From assembly GCA_904419035.1 (NCBI GenBank), contig CAJFQL010000026.1, forward strand, positions 1 to 31,434: DNA of 31,434 bases, written 5' to 3'. Source of the DNA: Candidatus Heritagella caecorum. GTDB lineage: Bacteria; Bacillota; Clostridia; Oscillospirales; Acutalibacteraceae. The stretch's first letter is position 1. Each line of letters opens with the position of its first letter. Shown piece by piece: positions 21,773-31,372 of the stretch. A program made the position numbers and the translations under genes. The notes under the pieces were generated by a model. That model had not been told where the DNA came from. It did not search any database and worked only from the letters and a program-made list of their open reading frames with translations.

Positions 21773-22723
21773 TTATATCTCGCCGGCTTTTTGCAAATAG
21801 GAACGAAGCACATCGCACGACGCGTGGAAGGCCTCTTTTTCGTCCGGCGTCAGGGATAACGTGACAATGCCTTCCATCCCACCGGCGCCAATCACCGCCG
21901 GTACCCCGGCCGCCACATTTTCTTCGCCGTATTCGCCCTGCAAGGCGGTGGAAACCGGCAGCACCACTTTTTCATCATGGAAAATCGCCGTTATGAGCCG
22001 CGCCGCCACGGTGCCAATACCAAATTCCGTGCAGGATTTGTGGGTGACTTCGAACATACCGGCGTCTTTCCCCCGGCGGGTCAGCTCATCAAGCGGCGTT
22101 TTCCCCCATCGCTCCGGTTCCTGCTGCCGCAGGGTCAAAAAAGGCTGTCCACCTATGCACACTCTTGACCAGGGCACCATGTGGGAATCCCCGTGTTCGC
22201 CCATGCACAGCGCGCTGACACTGTGGGTGCTCACGCCGCCATCCTGGGCGATCACCCGCCGCAGACGCAGACTGTCAAGCCCCGTACCGGTGGAAAACGC
22301 CTTCTCCCGGGGAAACCCAATCCCCCGCCGCAGCAGTTCGCCCACTACGTCGGCCGGGTTGGAAATGCTGATCAATATCCCGGAAAAGCCGCTTTGCTTT
22401 ATACGGGGGATGATGTCGTTTTTCAGCATGCGCACCGAATCATAAAATAGGTCGAGCCTGGTTTCGCCTTCTTTGCGGCCCCGGCCCGCCGCCATAATCA
22501 GGATGCTGGCGTCTTTCATATCGTCATCCGTGCCCGCCCGGATCACCGGGGCAAACCCCATGGAAACCGCCGCGTCGCTTAGATCCATCGCCTGGCCCGC
22601 CGCTTTCTTTTCCAGGATATCCAATAGTACAATTTCTTCGCACAATCCGCCGAACAGCAGACTCAGCGCACAGTGGGACCCCACGTGACCGGCGCCCAAA
22701 ATCACAACTTTTCTTTTTTGCAT
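21773..22723 (-). CDS. ldh: L-lactate dehydrogenase
   Basis: The ATG at 22723 (MQKRKVVILGAGHVGS...) is followed by a Rossmann GxGxxG, and the L-LDH catalytic-His signature GEHGDS is present. The track's 37-aa 5' extension is unlikely. Confidence 0.8.
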   Translation of the reverse strand: MQKRKVVILGAGHVGSHCALSLLFGGLCEEIVLLDILEKKAAGQAMDLSDAAVSMGFAPVIRAGTDDDMKDASILIMAAGRGRKEGETRLDLFYDSVRMLKNDIIPRIKQSGFSGILISISNPADVVGELLRRGIGFPREKAFSTGTGLDSLRLRRVIAQDGGVSTHSVSALCMGEHGDSHMVPWSRVCIGGQPFLTLRQQEPERWGKTPLDELTRRGKDAGMFEVTHKSCTEFGIGTVAARLITAIFHDEKVVLPVSTALQGEYGEENVAAGVPAVIGAGGMEGIVTLSLTPDEKEAFHASCDVLRSYLQKAGEI

Positions 22724-22856
22724 GGCAAGTGCCCCCTTTTTGACGACCTTTCTTTCCAGTATAGCACGTCTGTTTTCGCCGTCAAGAGCCAGCAAAAGGC
22801 CCGGCGGTTGTTTCCACAAATAGTACCCCCCCACCGGGCCCTTTTTCCCCCAAGTA

Positions 22857-24845: not shown

Positions 24846-26687
24846 TTATACCCGTACGGTCACGGGATTTTGCACTTCATGGCCAATAAACGCCCAGGCG
24901 TTGCTATACTGGCCGCTACGCACTTCATTTTTCAAATTTGCGCACTGCTTTTTCAGATTCACTACCTGCTGCGCCAACTCTGTCAGCTTCCTGTCCTGTT
25001 GCTCATAAAACTGGATCATTTGATCCATTTCACCCTGTACAGACCGGCACTGAGAAAAAATCGTGCGCAGGGTGGAAGCGTCCTGGCTGTTCTGGCAGTA
25101 ATTTAAGTATGCATTGAGCGCATCGTCCAACGCTTTGCGCTGCTGCTGCAAAGTGCCCAGCATGTTGTAAGCCACGGGAATTTCCTTTTGCTGGTTAAAC
25201 TGATTCACCGACAGGTTGTACTGGTTCTGCAAATTGTTCATCTGGGTGCGCAAAGTCTGGGACTGGGCTGTCACTTTCTGCATCTGCTGCTGCATGGCAG
25301 TTAACTTCTGCTGCATGCTCTGCCCGATGTTTTGAACCTCCGGCGCCCGCTTTTTCATGTTTTCTTCGATGGCCCCGGCTTTTTGCAGGAAATTTTCGTC
25401 ACGGAGCTGACGGCTCAATGCCTGGTCCAGCATACGGCACACCGACTGGATCCATTCGTCAATGGCCGTATTCACAGCCTGGTACGCCTTTTTCAGATCC
25501 GGTGACGCAAACCGGATGGCGTTTTTATAGGCGATTTCGCCGCTGATTTGTTGGCCCTTGCGGATCATTTCATCGGCTGTGCGGCACTTCAGCTTGCACA
25601 GTAGCTGGCCCCAATAGGCCTGTGCATTTTCGGGGTCTTTATCCAGCACGCGGTTATAATAAGTGGCGGCGTCGGAAAGCTGGCCGTTATCCAGGAAAAT
25701 GTCGGCCCGTTTGAGCAAACTGCGGGCTTCCTGCTGCATCACACTGCCCGCTGAAACGGCAGCAGCCGCGGCGGCCGGTTGGGTGGTTTTCCCGTTTTTC
25801 GCATTGACCAATTTTTGGACATATTCAATCAGCTGCAGTTCGCCGACAGGCGTACCCATATTGACAGCCTGCAACGACGACAGTTCCCGGGGCAAATCCA
25901 TATCAGGCAACAAATCCCAGTACGCCGGGATCAGTGTTTTTTCTTCGCCGTTATTGATCAGTTCCAAATACCGCGCCCATTCGTTCTTCACCCAGGGCGC
26001 CGTAAAGTATTCCGGTTTGGAGCCCATCAGCACCATCACCCGGGACGTGTGCAGCGCCGAAAAGATGATGGGTTCGTAATTTTTCCCCAGGGGCAGGGAT
26101 TCCGGGGCATAGAAGGTGCGAATCCCCTTGGCCGTCAATTTTTCATACAGCGAGCGGGCCCGGAAGCTATCCAGGGTACGTTCGCCGTTATCCTGCTCCT
26201 TATAGCTGATAAACACATCATATTTTTCCTGCTTGGCCGCAATGGAGAGAATCTCCTGCATAATGGTGTTGATCTCCTGGGCCTGGGCTTCGTAACGGCC
26301 CTTAGCGCCGGGTTCGGCCCGGCGGATGACCTCCTGAAAATCGGGGTCATTTAAAATGGAACCATATTTGGCCCGGTGACAGGTGGGCACATACCGTCCG
26401 GTGGCCGGGTCTTTTACGTATTCAATACCGTATTTGCAAAGGAGCAGGCCCCAATATGCTTCGGCGTCGCCGCTGTCTTCCGCAATCACTTTTTCGTAAA
26501 CCGAAATGGCCCGGTCAAATTCGCTGTGCATACGCAGATCGTTGGCGCGGTTGTGCATGCTGATAAGCCGTTCGTCATGATCGTTTGGTAAATCCGAAAT
26601 CGAATCGCACGAATCGCACACCGCTGTCTTCCCGTCCGGGTTGGGGATCAAATTGCCGCCGCACATTTTGCATTTAAAAACTGCCAT
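24846..26687 (-). CDS. TIR-domain protein with N-terminal zinc ribbon, two TPR-like modules flanking the TIR, and a Q/N-rich C-terminal coiled coil
   Basis: The N-terminus has CKMCGG...CDSCDS. The TIR core motifs are YDVFISYKEQD ... SRVMVLMGS ... PWVKNEWARYLEL. Two repeated TPR-like units, AEAYWGLLLCKYG and AQAYWGQLLCKLKC, flank the TIR. The C-terminus is a QSMQQKLTAMQQQMQK...NNLQNQYN coiled coil. The ATG start has a GGAGGAAAGA RBS. Confidence 0.7.
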   Translation of the reverse strand: MAVFKCKMCGGNLIPNPDGKTAVCDSCDSISDLPNDHDERLISMHNRANDLRMHSEFDRAISVYEKVIAEDSGDAEAYWGLLLCKYGIEYVKDPATGRYVPTCHRAKYGSILNDPDFQEVIRRAEPGAKGRYEAQAQEINTIMQEILSIAAKQEKYDVFISYKEQDNGERTLDSFRARSLYEKLTAKGIRTFYAPESLPLGKNYEPIIFSALHTSRVMVLMGSKPEYFTAPWVKNEWARYLELINNGEEKTLIPAYWDLLPDMDLPRELSSLQAVNMGTPVGELQLIEYVQKLVNAKNGKTTQPAAAAAAVSAGSVMQQEARSLLKRADIFLDNGQLSDAATYYNRVLDKDPENAQAYWGQLLCKLKCRTADEMIRKGQQISGEIAYKNAIRFASPDLKKAYQAVNTAIDEWIQSVCRMLDQALSRQLRDENFLQKAGAIEENMKKRAPEVQNIGQSMQQKLTAMQQQMQKVTAQSQTLRTQMNNLQNQYNLSVNQFNQQKEIPVAYNMLGTLQQQRKALDDALNAYLNYCQNSQDASTLRTIFSQCRSVQGEMDQMIQFYEQQDRKLTELAQQVVNLKKQCANLKNEVRSGQYSNAWAFIGHEVQNPVTVRV

Positions 26688-26702: not shown

Positions 26703-27404
26703 TTATTTCAGGATCTTGCACTTCATGTTGCGCTCTTTGAGCTGGTTGCGCACCAGTACACAGGCCTGCCAGGCTTCGGTCTCCCGTCCGGCCCGCACAC
26801 AGGAGCCGATATAGGCAATCCGCTCCGCAATAAACTGTTCCAGCGACGAAAGCGCTTCGTGGCTCATGGGGTCGCTATAGCGCAAATCTTCCGCCAGCGA
26901 CAGCATTTCCTTTTTGACCGTCTCATCTTTCACGCTCAGGGCATACCCCTGCACATCGGTCATCAAATTGCGCACAAAAAAGACCTTTTGGTTTTCGGTC
27001 TCTTCCATTTTTTCGGCGTGATCTTTGGCGATCAGCCCCGAAATCAGGAAGATCACTTCCACCGCCAAAATCAGGATTTGAATAATAAACGCCAGTTTTA
27101 CATCGCAAGCGGGAATCAACATGATCACCGTACCAGCAATCAGTTCCACCACCAGGTACACTGCGGCGCTGCGGCTGATGGGATACCCCAAAAAGAGATC
27201 CCGGGGCCGGATCCCCTCACGGCCATAGGTCAGGCAGGTGACCAGAATCTGCATCAAAAACGCCACCAGCACAAAAATGTACGAACACCAGAACGACGGC
27301 GTCATCTGCCAGTTCCCGATGAGGACAAACAGAATCAGGTTGTAAACCAGAAAGCCGGTCAGCCATCCGACCGCCCCCAAGATATATTTCTTATCCACTT
27401 TCAT
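26703..27404 (-). CDS. 4-TM integral membrane protein with C-terminal cytoplasmic helical domain, function unknown
   Basis: 233-aa ORF with four hydrophobic helices in the first ~130 aa, followed by a charged helical C-terminal domain. The ATG start is preceded by GGAGGA and lies 15 nt upstream of the TIR gene. Confidence 0.5.
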   Translation of the reverse strand: MKVDKKYILGAVGWLTGFLVYNLILFVLIGNWQMTPSFWCSYIFVLVAFLMQILVTCLTYGREGIRPRDLFLGYPISRSAAVYLVVELIAGTVIMLIPACDVKLAFIIQILILAVEVIFLISGLIAKDHAEKMEETENQKVFFVRNLMTDVQGYALSVKDETVKKEMLSLAEDLRYSDPMSHEALSSLEQFIAERIAYIGSCVRAGRETEAWQACVLVRNQLKERNMKCKILK

Positions 27405-27456: not shown

Positions 27457-27987
27457 TTACGGTTCCGCTTTGTTTTGCAGCGCCGTTACCTCGCGCCGGA
27501 AGGCGTCCAGCCGCTGCTGTAAAGCGCCCTCGTAGTGATTTATTTGCTCCCAGCTTTTTTGCATGGAAGGGAGATACCCTTCAAACCGGTTCAGCGCATC
27601 GGCTTTTTGCAGCTTTTCGGTCATCTCAGCTTGGAACTGGAGTTCCTGTTCCCGCTCCGCTTCGTTTTTGGCCTGCTGACTAGCGAGACGCGCCGCCTTT
27701 TCGGCCGACGAGCCTTGCGCGATCCCCACGCACAAACCGATCACCGAACCGATCACCAATAAATAGAGGCCCGCCTGCATCAGCGCTTCATCACTGGGGA
27801 AGTACGTATCCAACGCATTCACCGCCATATCGCACACGCCAAATACGCAGCGTGTCCCGATGATGCCATCACAAGCATCGCCAAAACACTGGCCCAGCCC
27901 CAAGGCAAGCAAAATCACCAGCGTCCATACAACGGTATAGATGCACCCTTTTATCAGCCCTTTTATGGCGCCCGAAACCATTCTCAT
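27457..27987 (-). CDS. Cys-rich two-TM protein with cytoplasmic coiled coil (paralog A), function unknown
   Basis: 176-aa ORF organised as TM1, then a Cys-rich loop (GQCFGDACDG...RCVFGVCD), then TM2, then a coiled coil. Its ATG overlaps the stop of paralog B (ATGA). Confidence 0.5.
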   Translation of the reverse strand: MRMVSGAIKGLIKGCIYTVVWTLVILLALGLGQCFGDACDGIIGTRCVFGVCDMAVNALDTYFPSDEALMQAGLYLLVIGSVIGLCVGIAQGSSAEKAARLASQQAKNEAEREQELQFQAEMTEKLQKADALNRFEGYLPSMQKSWEQINHYEGALQQRLDAFRREVTALQNKAEP

Positions 27988-28505
27988 TGTGCGCTCCCGC
28001 CTTTCGGTGTGCCGCCTTGGCCTTTTTCGATCAGCTGCCGGATCTCACTCTGCAACACATGCAGGTGCTTGTCCGTTTCCCTCTGGTGGGCCATCATCGT
28101 CTCGTGGGTTTTGGAAAGCCCCGTACGGATTTTTACACTCTCATTAGGCATTTCACTACACTTTAATAGCGTTTCACGAATCGTACCTGCAAAATTTTCC
28201 TGGTTTCGGTGCTCGTCCTCCACCTGGTTCGACTGGATGTGCAAAATTTGCGCCTTTTGCTTGGAAACACCTGTCGCCATACCGATTAAGAACCCAAGCA
28301 CGGCCCCAATAATCCCGCCGTAGATGAAGGTACTGGCTGGCAATTGGTCAATTCCCCGGGTACAATCTCCCACGCAGTTATTCTCACCAATAAAGCAGGT
28401 ACACAGTTCTCCCACGCACCCCAAAATTCCAATGGCCAGCACCACAGCCAGCCCGGCGAGTGCGCCGATGAATATCCCGGCGATTGAATATTTTACGACT
28501 TGCAA
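27984..28505 (-). CDS. Cys-rich two-TM protein with cytoplasmic coiled coil (paralog B), function unknown
   Basis: 173-aa ORF with the same architecture as paralog A; its Cys-rich loop is GCVGELCTCFIGENNCVGDC. A TTG start at 28505 has GGAGGA 6 nt upstream and overlaps the lgt 3' end by 13 nt. Confidence 0.5.
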   Translation of the reverse strand: MQVVKYSIAGIFIGALAGLAVVLAIGILGCVGELCTCFIGENNCVGDCTRGIDQLPASTFIYGGIIGAVLGFLIGMATGVSKQKAQILHIQSNQVEDEHRNQENFAGTIRETLLKCSEMPNESVKIRTGLSKTHETMMAHQRETDKHLHVLQSEIRQLIEKGQGGTPKGGSAQ

Positions 28506-29308
28506 AATGATTCCTCCTCAGGTTTGGGGGCATGCCGTCCCCGGTATCGATACCAGCCGCCCCACAGGGCCAAAGCCACAAGCAGCCCCATGCTGACAAG
28601 CTGGCTAAAAGAAAATACCCCATACACGCCCCGTACCGCGTCGCCCCGCAAAAATTCCAGGCAGAACCGGCACACGGCGTAACTGGCCATATAGATAAAG
28701 ACCAATTGCCCCGAAAACCGCTTTTTTCGGTACAAAAGCAGCATACAAAGGCACAGCAGAAAAAGGCACACAGCTTCCAGCAGCTGTACCGGAAAGCACC
28801 ACCGTTCGCTGCCGTCCGGAAGGATATAATGCACCGCCAAAAAGCCGTGCCATTCCTTCCCATAACAACACCCGGCAAACAGGCACCCAAACCGGGCGAT
28901 CCCGTGAAACAGCGGGATCACGATGGCCAAGGTATCCATCTGCACCGTCAGGTGGGCAAAGGTCTGCCGGTGTTTGATAATCCAGCCCGTCACCAGCCGG
29001 TACACGAGCACAAAACCGAGCAGCCCTCCATACGCCACAAACGCGCTGCGTCGCACATCGGTAAAGGTCAGCGCCCGGCCTTCCTGCAGGCAATTGGCCA
29101 CTTCAACCAAAAAGCCGAAAAAACGCCCGCCCAGTAGCAGACCCAACGCGGCCAGCCCGAACTGCCATCCGAACCAGCGCAGGTCTTCGCTTTTTTTCAG
29201 CAGGACCGCCACAAACGGGATTAAGGCCGCCACAGTAGCGATTCCCGCAAAAAACAGGTACGGAGTCACGCCCGCGATGCGGGTGGTTTCGGTATAAACG
29301 GTGATCAT
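28493..29308 (-). CDS. lgt: prolipoprotein diacylglyceryl transferase
   Basis: About 271 aa from the ATG at 29308 (MITVYTE...), in an ATGA overlap with the SPFH gene stop. The protein is polytopic, with Lgt-like motifs ...HGIARFGCLFAGCCYG... and ...CRFCLEFLRGD... (the Lgt RxxExxRxD signature). The track's 27-aa N-terminal extension is unlikely. Confidence 0.6.
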   Translation of the reverse strand: MITVYTETTRIAGVTPYLFFAGIATVAALIPFVAVLLKKSEDLRWFGWQFGLAALGLLLGGRFFGFLVEVANCLQEGRALTFTDVRRSAFVAYGGLLGFVLVYRLVTGWIIKHRQTFAHLTVQMDTLAIVIPLFHGIARFGCLFAGCCYGKEWHGFLAVHYILPDGSERWCFPVQLLEAVCLFLLCLCMLLLYRKKRFSGQLVFIYMASYAVCRFCLEFLRGDAVRGVYGVFSFSQLVSMGLLVALALWGGWYRYRGRHAPKPEEESFCKS

Positions 29309-31179
29309 ACGCTCGGTTCCTGGCCATTCCCGGCATCCGGCGCCGCGGTGTCCACCGCTTGGGTCACAGCCGGGCGGGGGTTGCCGCATTCGTCACAGAA
29401 TTTGCCCCGGTTGCCGGTTTTGCCGCATACACAGTTCCAGGTGTCGTCCTTTTGCGGGCGGGGCTTACCGCAATTCTGGCAGAATTTGCCCCGGTTGCCT
29501 TTTTGCCCGCATTCACAGTCCCAGGTATCCTCTTTTTGTGGACGGGGCTTGCCGCAATTCTGGCAGAACTTGCCCCGGTTCCCCTTTTGGCCGCATTCAC
29601 AGTCCCAAGTATCCTCGGGCTGAGGCTGAGGCTTGCCGCAATTCTGACAGAATTTGCCCTGGTTCCCCTTTTGGCCGCATGCGCAATCCCATCCGGTTGT
29701 CAAAACCGGCGGCGTTTCGGTGAAGGTTTCCATCATGGGATTGAGCGCATCTTTTGTCATGTGGATCACACCGCCCATCATGCCAAGGCCCATGCCCAAA
29801 TTGGCAATATCGGCCATACCGCCGGCGCCGCCCGCCGATGAGTTGGTAGCGATACCCACGCCCACCTGCCGGGCCGTTTCCTGCTGGTAGGTATACCCTT
29901 TCATGCGCATCTCTTCCGCTTCGGCCTGGGCCTGCATGCGGTAGCTTTCCGCTTCGCCCTGGGCCCGCGCCACTTTCATGCGGGCTTCCGTTTCGGCGCG
30001 CAGCACCTGGCGTTCCATATCCACCTTTTCCCGTTCCAGCGCCGCCGTGCTGGTTTCTTTTTTGATCTGTTCTTCCCGCACATTCAGGAAGCGGTCGGCG
30101 TACTGCTGGCGCAGGCGGTTGAAGTTTTCGTCATCCGGCAGCACCACCGTGGTGACGAAAAATTCCGGCATTTCCAGGCCGTAATCGGCTAAGTATTCGT
30201 TCAGGCTCTTGCGCAGGCCTTCGGAAAGCAGCGCAAGCTGCTCGTCGATTTCCAGAATATTGATCTGGTTCTGCTTGATAATCTGGGGCAGGCGGCTTTT
30301 CACCTGGGTCAGGATCAGCGGCTTAAACGAAGCCTGGAACGACATCACGCCGCTGTCCTGGCTTTCCTGGCGCAGCCCCATGCTGGTGCCCACCATTTTC
30401 AGCACCAGTTTGCGGGAATCGATGACCCGCACATTGTATTGGCCGCTGGCCCCGATTTCAATATGCATCCCGGTGGCCGGGTCGAACAGCCGTACTTTGC
30501 TGTCGGTCCCCCAGCGCAAGCCCATTTGCACGGCCATATTGATAAAGTAGACTTCCGAATGGAAGGCGCCTTCGGTACCGGCCGGCAGCTTATAGAATTC
30601 ATTTAATATGGGCAGTTTTTCGGTTTCCAGCGTATACCGGCCCGCCGGGAACAGATCCAGCGCCCGCCCGTTGCGGAAGAGCAAAGCTTCCTGGGATTCA
30701 TGGACAATCAGCTGCGAACCCAAATTAAAATCTTCCAGCGGGTGTTTCCACACAAAAACCGTGTTGTCGCCTTCGTATTTGATCAAGCTGGCTACGCCCG
30801 CTTTGGCTACTTTGGCTTTTCCCAACTGCTGCTGTACATCCACCACCGTGTCGCACAGCGGACAGGTATACGTCGATGTACTGCGGTCTGCCGTCAGCGT
30901 ACAGGCGCAAGTCGGGCATGTGAACGAAACCACCGTTTTTCCGTCGCCCACGCTGAGCTTTTGTTTACATACCGGGCATACGGCGTTTTTCGCCTTCGAC
31001 TGGTCATACACAATGGTATTGCCGCAATGGGGGCACACCTTCGTCGTAACTTTATCCGTTTTTACATGGATGGTATACCCGCAGTCGCAGTCGATGGTCC
31101 TTTTTGTAAAGAAGAAAAACCTTTTTTGTGTCATATGATATTTGCCGCAGTTGGGGCACTCAATGACAAATCCCGCCAT
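29305..31179 (-). CDS. SPFH/band-7 (flotillin-/YdjI-like) domain protein with three N-terminal and four C-terminal zinc-ribbon modules
   Basis: The ATG at 31179 (MAGFVIECPNCGK...) has a GGAGAGGAG RBS. The N-terminus has three CxxC...CxC ribbons. The central SPFH domain reads GDNTVFVWKHP...LFRNGRALDLF...NVRVIDSRKLV. It is followed by an EA-rich coiled coil and a Gly/Met-rich linker, then four 28-aa repeats DCxCGQKGNxGKFCQNCGKPxPQ. The track's 41-aa 5' extension is unlikely. Confidence 0.7.
   Translation of the reverse strand: MAGFVIECPNCGKYHMTQKRFFFFTKRTIDCDCGYTIHVKTDKVTTKVCPHCGNTIVYDQSKAKNAVCPVCKQKLSVGDGKTVVSFTCPTCACTLTADRSTSTYTCPLCDTVVDVQQQLGKAKVAKAGVASLIKYEGDNTVFVWKHPLEDFNLGSQLIVHESQEALLFRNGRALDLFPAGRYTLETEKLPILNEFYKLPAGTEGAFHSEVYFINMAVQMGLRWGTDSKVRLFDPATGMHIEIGASGQYNVRVIDSRKLVLKMVGTSMGLRQESQDSGVMSFQASFKPLILTQVKSRLPQIIKQNQINILEIDEQLALLSEGLRKSLNEYLADYGLEMPEFFVTTVVLPDDENFNRLRQQYADRFLNVREEQIKKETSTAALEREKVDMERQVLRAETEARMKVARAQGEAESYRMQAQAEAEEMRMKGYTYQQETARQVGVGIATNSSAGGAGGMADIANLGMGLGMMGGVIHMTKDALNPMMETFTETPPVLTTGWDCACGQKGNQGKFCQNCGKPQPQPEDTWDCECGQKGNRGKFCQNCGKPRPQKEDTWDCECGQKGNRGKFCQNCGKPRPQKDDTWNCVCGKTGNRGKFCDECGNPRPAVTQAVDTAAPDAGNGQEPSV
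29360..29700 (-). repeat. four tandem ~84-bp direct repeats (coding; zinc-ribbon repeats of the SPFH protein C-terminus)
   Basis: The unit CTTGCCGCAATTCTGGCAGAATTTGCCCCGGTT... recurs four times with a period of ~84 nt and >85% identity. It encodes TWDCECGQKGNRGKFCQNCGKPRPQKED. Confidence 0.75.
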
Positions 31180-31372
31180 ATTCTTCTCCTCTCCCTTCTT
31201 TTCGATCCTGTTCTGCCCTTTTCCCGATTCTTTTCTATAGAAATTCGGATGGGAAGATTCCCGCTCTTTCATACAGGCTGCCGCTTTCATAAGGGCAGGC
31301 ATACTCTAATTATAATAGAAAAGGCTCCTGTATGACATGAACAGGTCCAGTAAAAACGGACAATAGACAAAG

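Follow-up and report, generated by a model that had tools for sequence, protein, structure and literature searches.

A TM-less TIR protein from Candidatus Heritagella caecorum and its large Clostridia family associated with SPFH and four-TM proteins

TIR domains are central to the immunity of animals, plants and bacteria, and those that act as NADases, enzymes which cleave NAD+, are activated by self-association, as in SARM1, AbTir, the plant TNLs, TIR-STING and SPARTA. The characterised bacterial TIR systems are, to our knowledge, either cytoplasmic sensors or pairs of a signal producer and an effector. Here we analyse a TIR protein encoded on the minus strand, at positions 24846..26687, of a 31,434-nucleotide stretch of DNA from Candidatus Heritagella caecorum (contig CAJFQL010000026.1; the whole stretch is referred to below as the window). 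It is cytoplasmic, lacks a transmembrane (TM) helix, ends in a helical tail and belongs to a very large family specific to Clostridia; this family is most likely the client of a two-gene membrane platform, which combines a soluble YdjI-type SPFH scaffold with a four-TM protein that we term M233.

Two further described systems bear on this locus. The YdjI-type SPFH protein of Bacillus subtilis is soluble, and adjacently encoded membrane proteins recruit it to foci (PMC8581546; bioRxiv 10.64898/2026.02.06.704340; PMC11237479). In multicellular bacteria, sensors diversified by diversity-generating retroelements (DGRs) are fused to conflict effectors, including TIR domains, with STAND NTPases as the framework (PMC10907252, PMC7159879). 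No published description of a cassette uniting SPFH, M233 and TIR genes was found in a literature search, and the 2025 survey of Thoeris systems does not mention this architecture.

A TIR domain between paralogous TPR-like modules

The TIR gene, identified from the listing of open reading frames (ORFs), encodes 613 residues followed by a stop codon, and its ATG lies 8 nt past a GGAGG ribosome-binding site and 15 nt past the stop of the upstream M233 gene. A public gene call has the same length, and the identical protein is deposited at NCBI as HIW15300.1 under the name 'TIR domain-containing protein [Firmicutes bacterium]'. Its TIR domain spans residues 154-295 (25803..26228; this and all the window features given below lie on the minus strand) and was recovered with the Pfam models TIR_2 (PF13676; 48.3 bits against a cutoff of 28, E 1.8e-12, residues 158-278) and TIR (PF01582; 29.2 bits, cutoff 21.3), the former being matched by all 58 homologues in the alignment from which an AlphaFold2 (AF2) model was built. 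In this model, whose mean predicted local distance difference test score (pLDDT) is 87.9, residues 158-295 reach a pLDDT of about 90. Foldseek comparisons against the PDB returned as best matches the TIR domains of L7, AbTir, RPP1, TIR-STING, Roq1, SARM1 and SPARTA; AbTir bound to 3AD was superimposed with a template-modelling score (TMt) of 0.79 and a root-mean-square deviation of 3.3, and the L7 TIR domain was also among the best. Sequence matches in the PDB include AtTIR and Roq1, the closest being plant TIR domains and TLR15. A preliminary description of this DNA had placed the TIR core at 25817-26228, which agrees with the extent of the TIR_2 match, and both the significant profile match and the TIR structures heading the PDB matches of the model uphold that assignment.

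The conserved motifs of the domain include YDVFISYKEQD at residues 156-166 and PWVKNEWARYLEL at residues 231-243. Within the latter lies the catalytic-type motif W232-V-K-N-E236-W237 (25977-25994), with the codon for E236 at 25980-25982. By counting along the alignment, E236 falls opposite the catalytic glutamate E86 in the WCLEEL motif of Roq1 in both the phmmer and the profile alignments; none of W232, N235, E236 and W237 varies among the 58 aligned sequences, and WV[KR]NEW is found in 99 of 99 family ORFs from species-representative genomes. The equivalent glutamates of helix alphaC are E100 of RUN1, E642 of SARM1 and E208 of AbTir. Since E236 aligns with Roq1 E86, the presence of the catalytic glutamate, which the preliminary description had left open, can be regarded as settled: judging from the alignments, a catalytic-type glutamate is present and strongly constrained, and the TIR protein is probably enzymatically active.

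The domain is preceded by a zinc-ribbon head (residues 1-34; 26586..26687) with the cysteines C6, C9, C24 and C27 in the motifs CKMC (residues 6-9) and CDSC (residues 24-27). It is modelled as three short strands, and in the 58-sequence alignment C9, C24 and C27 are invariant and C6 is at least 90% conserved. The first TPR-like module (residues 36-152; 26232..26582) was delineated from sub-threshold TPR matches, AF2 secondary structure and invariant residues. Its N-terminal TPR (residues 36-75) narrowly misses the cutoff of TPR_12, scoring 29.5 against 30.1, and in the model the module comprises three helices up to the motif AEAYWGLLLCK, a β-hairpin and two further helices. The hairpin, GIEYV..P..PT.HR (residues 86-105; 26373-26432), is invariant, and the invariant residues of the module as a whole in the same alignment are E76, W79, C84, G87-V91, D93, P101, T102 and R105.

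Behind the TIR domain follow an alanine-rich linker (residues 299-315; 25743..25793), which with a pLDDT below 50 is the sole disordered stretch of the model, and a second TPR-like module (residues 316-430; 25398..25742), which is a paralogue of the first without the hairpin. This module exceeds several Pfam cutoffs across residues 321-363 (TPR_2 38.1 against 27, TPR_1 37 against 27.8, TPR_16 41.5 against 32.7). The motif AEAYWGLLLCK of module 1 (residues 75-85) recurs as AQAYWGQLLCK in module 2 (residues 355-365), and residues 41-150 align with residues 320-420 at 26% identity over 104 columns (pairwise E 2e-9); moreover, a query with the N-terminal module matches twice in most relatives. Each module holds only about 1.5 TPR units. 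Hence the preliminary description was right in recognising a CxxC...CxxC ribbon ahead of the TIR domain and two internally repeated TPR-like modules on either side of it.

The C-terminal region is a glutamine/asparagine (Q/N)-rich, all-helical tail (residues 431-601; 24885..25397) with a Q+N content of 27-32%; over residues 421-613 this content is 27.5%, against about 7% in the N-terminal domains. Several long helices with pLDDT above 90 are modelled across residues 396-590, and weak matches of the coiled-coil type link the tail to SMC and DndD. The Q/N-rich helical character noted earlier is thus retained, but the region is some 170-190 residues long rather than about 100, and the modelled helices may pack as an antiparallel bundle instead of forming one coiled coil. 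No TM helix was detected in the protein, the highest 19-residue Kyte-Doolittle mean being 0.9, in agreement with the earlier reading; the helical tail stands where most relatives have a TM helix and an outer domain.

A widespread family and its SPFH-M233-TIR cassette

A word-indexed search recovered at least 7,840 significant homologues of the TIR protein, and its first 152 residues alone match 4,648 clusters at 50% identity, 2,009 of them at E<=1e-30. E-values from the window protein to family members range from 1e-100 to 1e-279. The conserved core extends from residue 1 to about residue 410, with divergence beyond, and contains the four ribbon cysteines, the hairpin GIEYV.DP....PT.(H/N)R, the TIR motifs and the second TPR unit; the window protein has all the invariant columns of the 58-sequence alignment. 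Nearly all host organisms are Clostridia of the gut or rumen, with Oscillospiraceae, Acutalibacteraceae, Lachnospiraceae and Christensenellaceae among them. The architecture called unusual in the preliminary description is therefore unusual only by comparison with characterised TIR proteins and is very common in Clostridia. The possibility that the N-terminal module is fused to effectors other than TIR was considered and rejected, with TIR motifs present in 141 of the top 143 cluster representatives matching this module; TIR-less heads were encountered only by seeding from M233, as set out below.

Around the TIR core we collected a set of 83 loci and clustered their neighbouring genes all-against-all. 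Only three families recur across these loci, namely TIR (81), SPFH (58) and M233 (54), the rest being variable. Among 32 loci flanked by 3.5 kb or more on each side, 26 have both SPFH and M233, and the commonest gene order is SPFH-M233-TIR, with one to four TIR copies. Reciprocally, 80 metagenome loci were seeded from M233 by a scan with six close M233 sequences: where there was room, SPFH lay immediately upstream in 48 of 52 loci, and 38 of 52 had a TIR-family gene no more than 1.5 kb downstream, with 3 more having one upstream. The window follows this pattern, its TIR gene being located downstream of Band_7_1 SPFH and M233 genes on the same strand.

At other M233-seeded loci, M233 is followed by a TIR-less protein which shares the zinc-ribbon head and usually continues with a weak TPR and then a coiled-coil or TM tail (for example L087:6718-8103, L123:3010-4239, L119:6665-8539 and L158:5538-6374). 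The heads of these proteins are 52% identical to that of the window protein over 27 residues, with little else shared, which suggests that the head is a docking element and the TIR domain one possible cargo. One M233-seeded locus has a ThsB_TIR gene in the client slot after M233. We read SPFH and M233 as a conserved platform, whose clients are zinc-ribbon-headed, variable and mostly TIR proteins.

Beyond the core the family is mostly membrane-anchored. In a topology sample of 99 family ORFs from 83 GTDB genomes, 80 (about 81%) have at least one TM helix past the core, and 70 have exactly one. Across these 70 the number of lysines plus arginines is 6.4 before and 1.9 after the helix, and the former exceeds the latter in 69; this bias assigns the core of the single-TM relatives to the cytoplasm and their C-terminus to the outside. 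Among the C-termini of 96 members we found DUF6273 in 53, BspA-type leucine-rich repeats (LRRs) in 9, RCC1 propellers in 9, Listeria-Bacteroides repeats in 5, and MORN and ankyrin repeats as single cases; FGE-sulfatase and RHS domains occur on further homologues. A locus may hold up to four tandem TIR paralogues with differing C-terminal domains. The Q/N-rich tail in its full length is restricted to a few relatives (P0001-P0009, 39-97% identity). A separate observation concerns P0065, a family member of 713 residues with several TM helices and a C-terminal ribosomal L7/L12 C-terminal domain, for which the NCBI name 'ribosomal protein L7/L12' is probably misleading. With regard to the window protein, the recruitment to upstream membrane proteins proposed in the preliminary description gains strength from the M233/SPFH synteny across the sets of 83 and 80 loci and from the TM helix in about 81% of relatives.

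Several relatives also carry the means for diversification. At two loci (L048, 12424-14477; L032, 2676-3508) a TIR-DUF6273 gene with a TM helix is followed by a bAvd-like gene and then by a template repeat (TR). The corresponding variable repeat (VR) is the 3' end of the TIR-DUF6273 gene, and the TR is a repeat of 126-127 nt of the gene's own end; in L048 an RVT_1 reverse transcriptase follows. The mismatches between VR and TR fall on adenines of the downstream copy, the TR, at 15 of 16 positions in L048 and 20 of 20 in L032, and this pattern is the signature of a DGR. A third TR-like repeat was detected at L038:13129-13247. The window gene ends in its helical tail without a VR, and the Pfam annotations of called genes within 10 kb on each side of it include no reverse transcriptase or avd gene, no dedicated repeat search having been run there.

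Recombinase genes recur directly upstream of SPFH and on the same strand, as a tyrosine recombinase of 279 residues at seven loci (L009, L011, L012, L037, L048, L058 and L081) and as a resolvase at three (L020, L052 and L054); individual examples are the tyrosine recombinase gene at L058:5287-6126 and the resolvase gene at L052:1708-2349. Their presence hints at inversion or shuffling within the cassette, or at its mobility. Between M233 and TIR there are, in addition, small genes of the defence type, of kinds common in defence islands, that encode standalone TIR_2, ThsB_TIR, DUF4365, HEPN pEK499_p136 and DUF2971 proteins (inserted genes at L004:2063-2488, L078:9515-9967, L011:6206-6715, L081:9486-10001, L038:9408-10001, L046:1927-2724, L048:9114-10004 and L111:7118-7690). 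Conflict systems, as opposed to housekeeping ones, are typically marked by paralogue arrays with swapped sensor domains, by DGR hypermutation and adjacent recombinases, and by the insertion of genes for HEPN, TIR and nuclease proteins.

The window operon and the split variant

In the window six genes are tightly packed on one strand in the order SPFH, Lgt-like, M173, M176, M233 and TIR. In its AF2 model (pLDDT 76.6), M233 (26703..27404) consists of four TM helices and, behind them, a four-helix bundle in the cytosol, and its invariant motifs are E..[RK]YSDP and a C-terminal RN.KC..LK. The family has no match in Pfam, NCBIfam or PADLOC, its profile finds nothing below E 0.2 among PDB sequences, and the model retrieves only generic helical bundles from the PDB with Foldseek, at E above 0.09. 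A word-indexed search with M233 returned only 8 proteins, a consequence of the divergence of the family, whose wide spread became apparent when phmmer was applied to the fetched loci.

The SPFH gene (29305..31179) encodes a Band_7_1 protein of the YdjI type (E 2.5e-36), with a gene call of 624 residues. It has no hydrophobic segment and is accordingly without a TM helix. Its C-terminus bears four tandem zinc ribbons of the form W(D/N)C.CG..GN.GKFC..CG.P(R/Q)P (29371-29691), and its N-terminal 150 residues contain five CPxC motifs; the homologues are mostly shorter, at about 380 residues, with fewer ribbons. A sigma-70-like match, ATGTCA-18-TATAAT (31309..31338), lies upstream of SPFH and is a candidate operon promoter, agreeing with the consensus at 10 of 12 positions as a consensus match only.

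The gene next to SPFH (28493..29308; gene call of 271 residues) encodes a divergent Lgt-like membrane protein, which scores 84 bits with Pfam LGT and 54 bits with NCBIfam lgt, below the 118.9 cutoff of the latter. At the motif sites it reads YGGLLG and ARFGCLFAGCCYG, where canonical Lgt reads HGGLIG and GRxGNFxNxE. The two small genes that follow are paralogues: M176 (27457..27987) has two TM helices around a cysteine-rich outer loop and then a cytosolic coiled coil, and M173 (27984..28505; a gene call of 173 residues in L167) has the same layout, the loops of the two holding 4-5 cysteines each. They are possible substrates of the Lgt-like gene product or possible partners of the TIR tail.

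These additional genes accompany a small TM-less, helical-tailed subfamily, which comprises the window protein, L001 and L002 (copies of one orthologue, 66% identity), L003 (40%) and L039 (about 35%). All operons of this subfamily have one or two extra small genes encoding a TM segment and a coiled coil. Homologues of M173/M176 and the Lgt-like gene occur in the window, L001/L002 and L039; L003 has a non-homologous gene of 168 residues with TM and coiled coil in this slot, and no Lgt-like gene. Neither an M173/M176 homologue nor an Lgt-like gene was found beside any TM-bearing relative. This co-occurrence of small TM and coiled-coil genes with TM-less TIR genes suggests a split design, in which the membrane-spanning, outward part would be supplied in trans and would pair with the TIR tail.

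Two side observations concern the surroundings. In the source genome, past the end of the window, an IS3-type transposase pair (rve; L166:4097-5268) lies about 240 bp upstream of SPFH and splits DUF4317 from it, these two genes being adjacent in the 66%-identical locus L001. An L-lactate dehydrogenase gene (21773-22834, minus strand) is situated between sipL and spoIVA in the window, while in L001 sipL is directly followed by spoIVA.

Functional readings and comparison with known systems

The window protein looks like a TIR effector in an undescribed yet widespread architecture with undescribed partners. We give about an even chance to the view that a membrane-docked TIR NADase surveillance system, anti-phage and of the abortive-infection type, has this protein as its effector or sensor arm; NADase activity, docking, activation by clustering and the immune role are what we infer. 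The head and the TPR-like modules, here together with the tail, would dock the TIR protein at the SPFH/M233 platform, and in the window lineage the tail would probably pair with the coiled coils of the two-TM proteins M173 and M176. In the docked state the TIR domains would be held apart, and a trigger sensed at the envelope would gather them and thereby elicit NAD+ cleavage, with depletion or a signal product as the outcome. The sensor would be the outward-facing variable domain in most relatives and the partner membrane proteins in the window. Oligomerisation of the TPR-flanked TIR domain may accordingly be gated by a ligand or a partner, as was proposed earlier. A more specific version, offered tentatively and to be regarded as doubtful in its entirety, is a prokaryotic 'outside-in' receptor akin to Toll-like receptors (TLRs), in which single-pass TIR receptors with swappable or DGR-hypermutated outer domains would sit in an SPFH microdomain with M233 and be turned into NADases by clustering; in the window this receptor would be split, with the two-TM Cys-loop proteins acting in trans, possibly modified by the Lgt paralogue, and pairing with the tail.

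A number of points weigh against the surveillance reading. The window cassette is located between an insertion sequence (IS)-flanked DUF4317 gene and sipL-ldh-spoIVA, amid the housekeeping genes for Hsp33, Lon, ClpX and trigger factor, and no other defence genes were found near it. The TIR core was not found by tblastn in phage and plasmid collections, and among 2.9 million viral contigs it was present in only 2; on these same counts an origin from mobile elements was rejected. PADLOC matches the TIR region only, through PDC-S66 (7.8e-9) and, weakly, ThsB1 (23.3 bits, E 7.2e-6). A conserved glutamate alone is no proof of catalysis, and the model has a predicted template-modelling (pTM) score of 0.45. 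In a minority of members (L073, L053, L015 and L072) DUF6273 or other domains of the 'outer' type occur without a predicted TM helix, and sensing therefore need not be extracellular. The SPFH homologue of B. subtilis serves envelope-stress signalling and not immunity, and all functional statements on the family are inferential.

The last of the comparisons just named leads to an alternative in which the cassette is a module for envelope stress or membrane homeostasis, where SPFH and its membrane partners would monitor the membrane or cell wall and the TIR protein would couple them to NAD+ metabolism or act as a scaffold. Several features speak for it: an SPFH partner of the soluble Band_7_1, zinc-ribbon YdjI type (PMC8581546; PMC11237479), housekeeping and sporulation genes around the window cassette, the chromosomal location of the family away from mobile elements, and an operon gene, the Lgt-like one, that is suggestive of envelope biochemistry. 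We nevertheless judge it unlikely, since PspA and the TPM partner are absent, the context outside the cassette is not conserved, and the paralogue arrays, the DGR, the recombinases and the inserted HEPN, TIR and nuclease genes are the stamp of conflict. The position of the cassette directly upstream of sipL-spoIVA, both in the window and in the 66%-identical orthologue locus, could also be taken to mark the protein as a sporulation accessory, but SipL and SpoIVA are near only 2 of the 83 loci, L001 and L002, which represent one orthologue, and the contexts of the 40%-identical L003 and of over 80 further loci are unrelated; with flanking genes varying between loci, the sporulation link was rejected as having next to no probability.

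A Thoeris-like scheme, in which the TIR protein would make a messenger of the cyclic ADP-ribose (ADPR) type, the M233 effector would bind it through its cytosolic bundle and breach the membrane, and SPFH would be a regulator or scaffold, is in our estimate somewhat less probable again than the envelope-stress module. M233 is the tightest partner of the TIR gene, ending 15 nt ahead of its start in the window and occurring in 54-58 of 83 loci. The residues that are invariant in M233 belong to its cytosolic domain, and some cassettes hold additional small TIR or ThsB_TIR genes; TM effectors are moreover common in Thoeris-type systems (bioRxiv 10.64898/2025.12.03.692087). However, M233 has no recognisable nucleotide-sensing domain or structural match, the SPFH-M233 pair also accompanies TIR-less headed proteins, for which a platform role fits better than that of a receptor for a TIR signal, and the TIR proteins themselves bear sensor-like domains, as self-contained sensor-effectors would. 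Far less probable than either of these schemes is a TIR mimic directed at the host, which like TcpB, TcpC and TirS would disturb animal TLR signalling. Bacterial TIR proteins with coiled coils are known as immune modulators in the Tcp literature, which counts in its favour, as does the source, a metagenome-assembled genome of gut-associated Clostridia. Against this, the protein has no signal peptide or secretion-system context, the zinc ribbon and a TIR domain with an NAD+ site fit the cytoplasm, the positive-inside rule puts the TIR domain in the bacterial cytoplasm in the TM relatives, and the strict linkage to SPFH and M233 would be left unexplained.

Whichever role applies, the family is abundant in gut and rumen Clostridia, links a catalytically intact-looking TIR domain to the membrane and to an SPFH scaffold, from a protein class with functions in bacteria that are as yet little understood, and brings together the chemistry of TIR domains, SPFH scaffolds and targeted hypermutation. 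Should the immune reading be correct, this would be the first TIR system on an SPFH platform and a bacterial analogue of transmembrane TIR receptors, and it would provide a testable function for thousands of 'TIR domain-containing' or 'hypothetical' proteins of the human gut microbiome. If the role is instead in envelope stress, NAD+ chemistry would be tied to SPFH microdomains.

Comparison with the TIR NADase defence proteins ThsB, AbTir, SpbK, TIR-STING and the TIR-APAZ of SPARTA shows the same TIR fold, a WxxxE-type motif and a glutamate at the catalytic position, and these proteins likewise fuse the TIR domain to repeat or coiled-coil regions able to control oligomerisation. In the present family, by contrast, the TIR domain is set between two paralogous TPR-like modules, with a zinc-ribbon head in front, SPFH and a novel four-TM protein are the obligate neighbours, and most members are single-pass. 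No effector of the ThsA type (SIR2-SLOG, Macro-TM or other described forms) is encoded in the window operon, whose five upstream proteins have no PADLOC match and, in Pfam, match only LGT and Band_7. The PspA-YdjGHI (SamGHI) system of B. subtilis has the same soluble Band_7_1 zinc-ribbon SPFH protein, encoded beside potential recruiting membrane proteins. It differs in that the client here is a TIR protein and in that neither PspA nor a TPM-domain YdjH is present in the window operon or among the recurrent neighbours of the 83 loci; M233 is set apart by family and PDB searches rather than by direct comparison with YdjG or YdjH.

With Toll-like receptors and plant TIR-NLRs, the relatives share a layout that joins an outer LRR or ligand-binding domain through a single TM helix to a TIR domain in the cytoplasm. 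The order is inverted in these relatives, where the TIR domain is N-terminal, and they keep the catalytic glutamate, which most animal TLRs do not retain in their TIR domains; a TM helix and LRRs are both missing from the window protein, and beyond the TIR domain there is no evidence of common descent with either group. As in the DGR 'antigen sensor' systems, a DGR rewrites the C-terminal ligand-binding domain of the TIR protein in three relatives, but here without a STAND NTPase, in gut Clostridia as hosts, with a TM and DUF6273 target, and with a new link to SPFH and M233. The system resembles each of these known systems in part and fits none of them.

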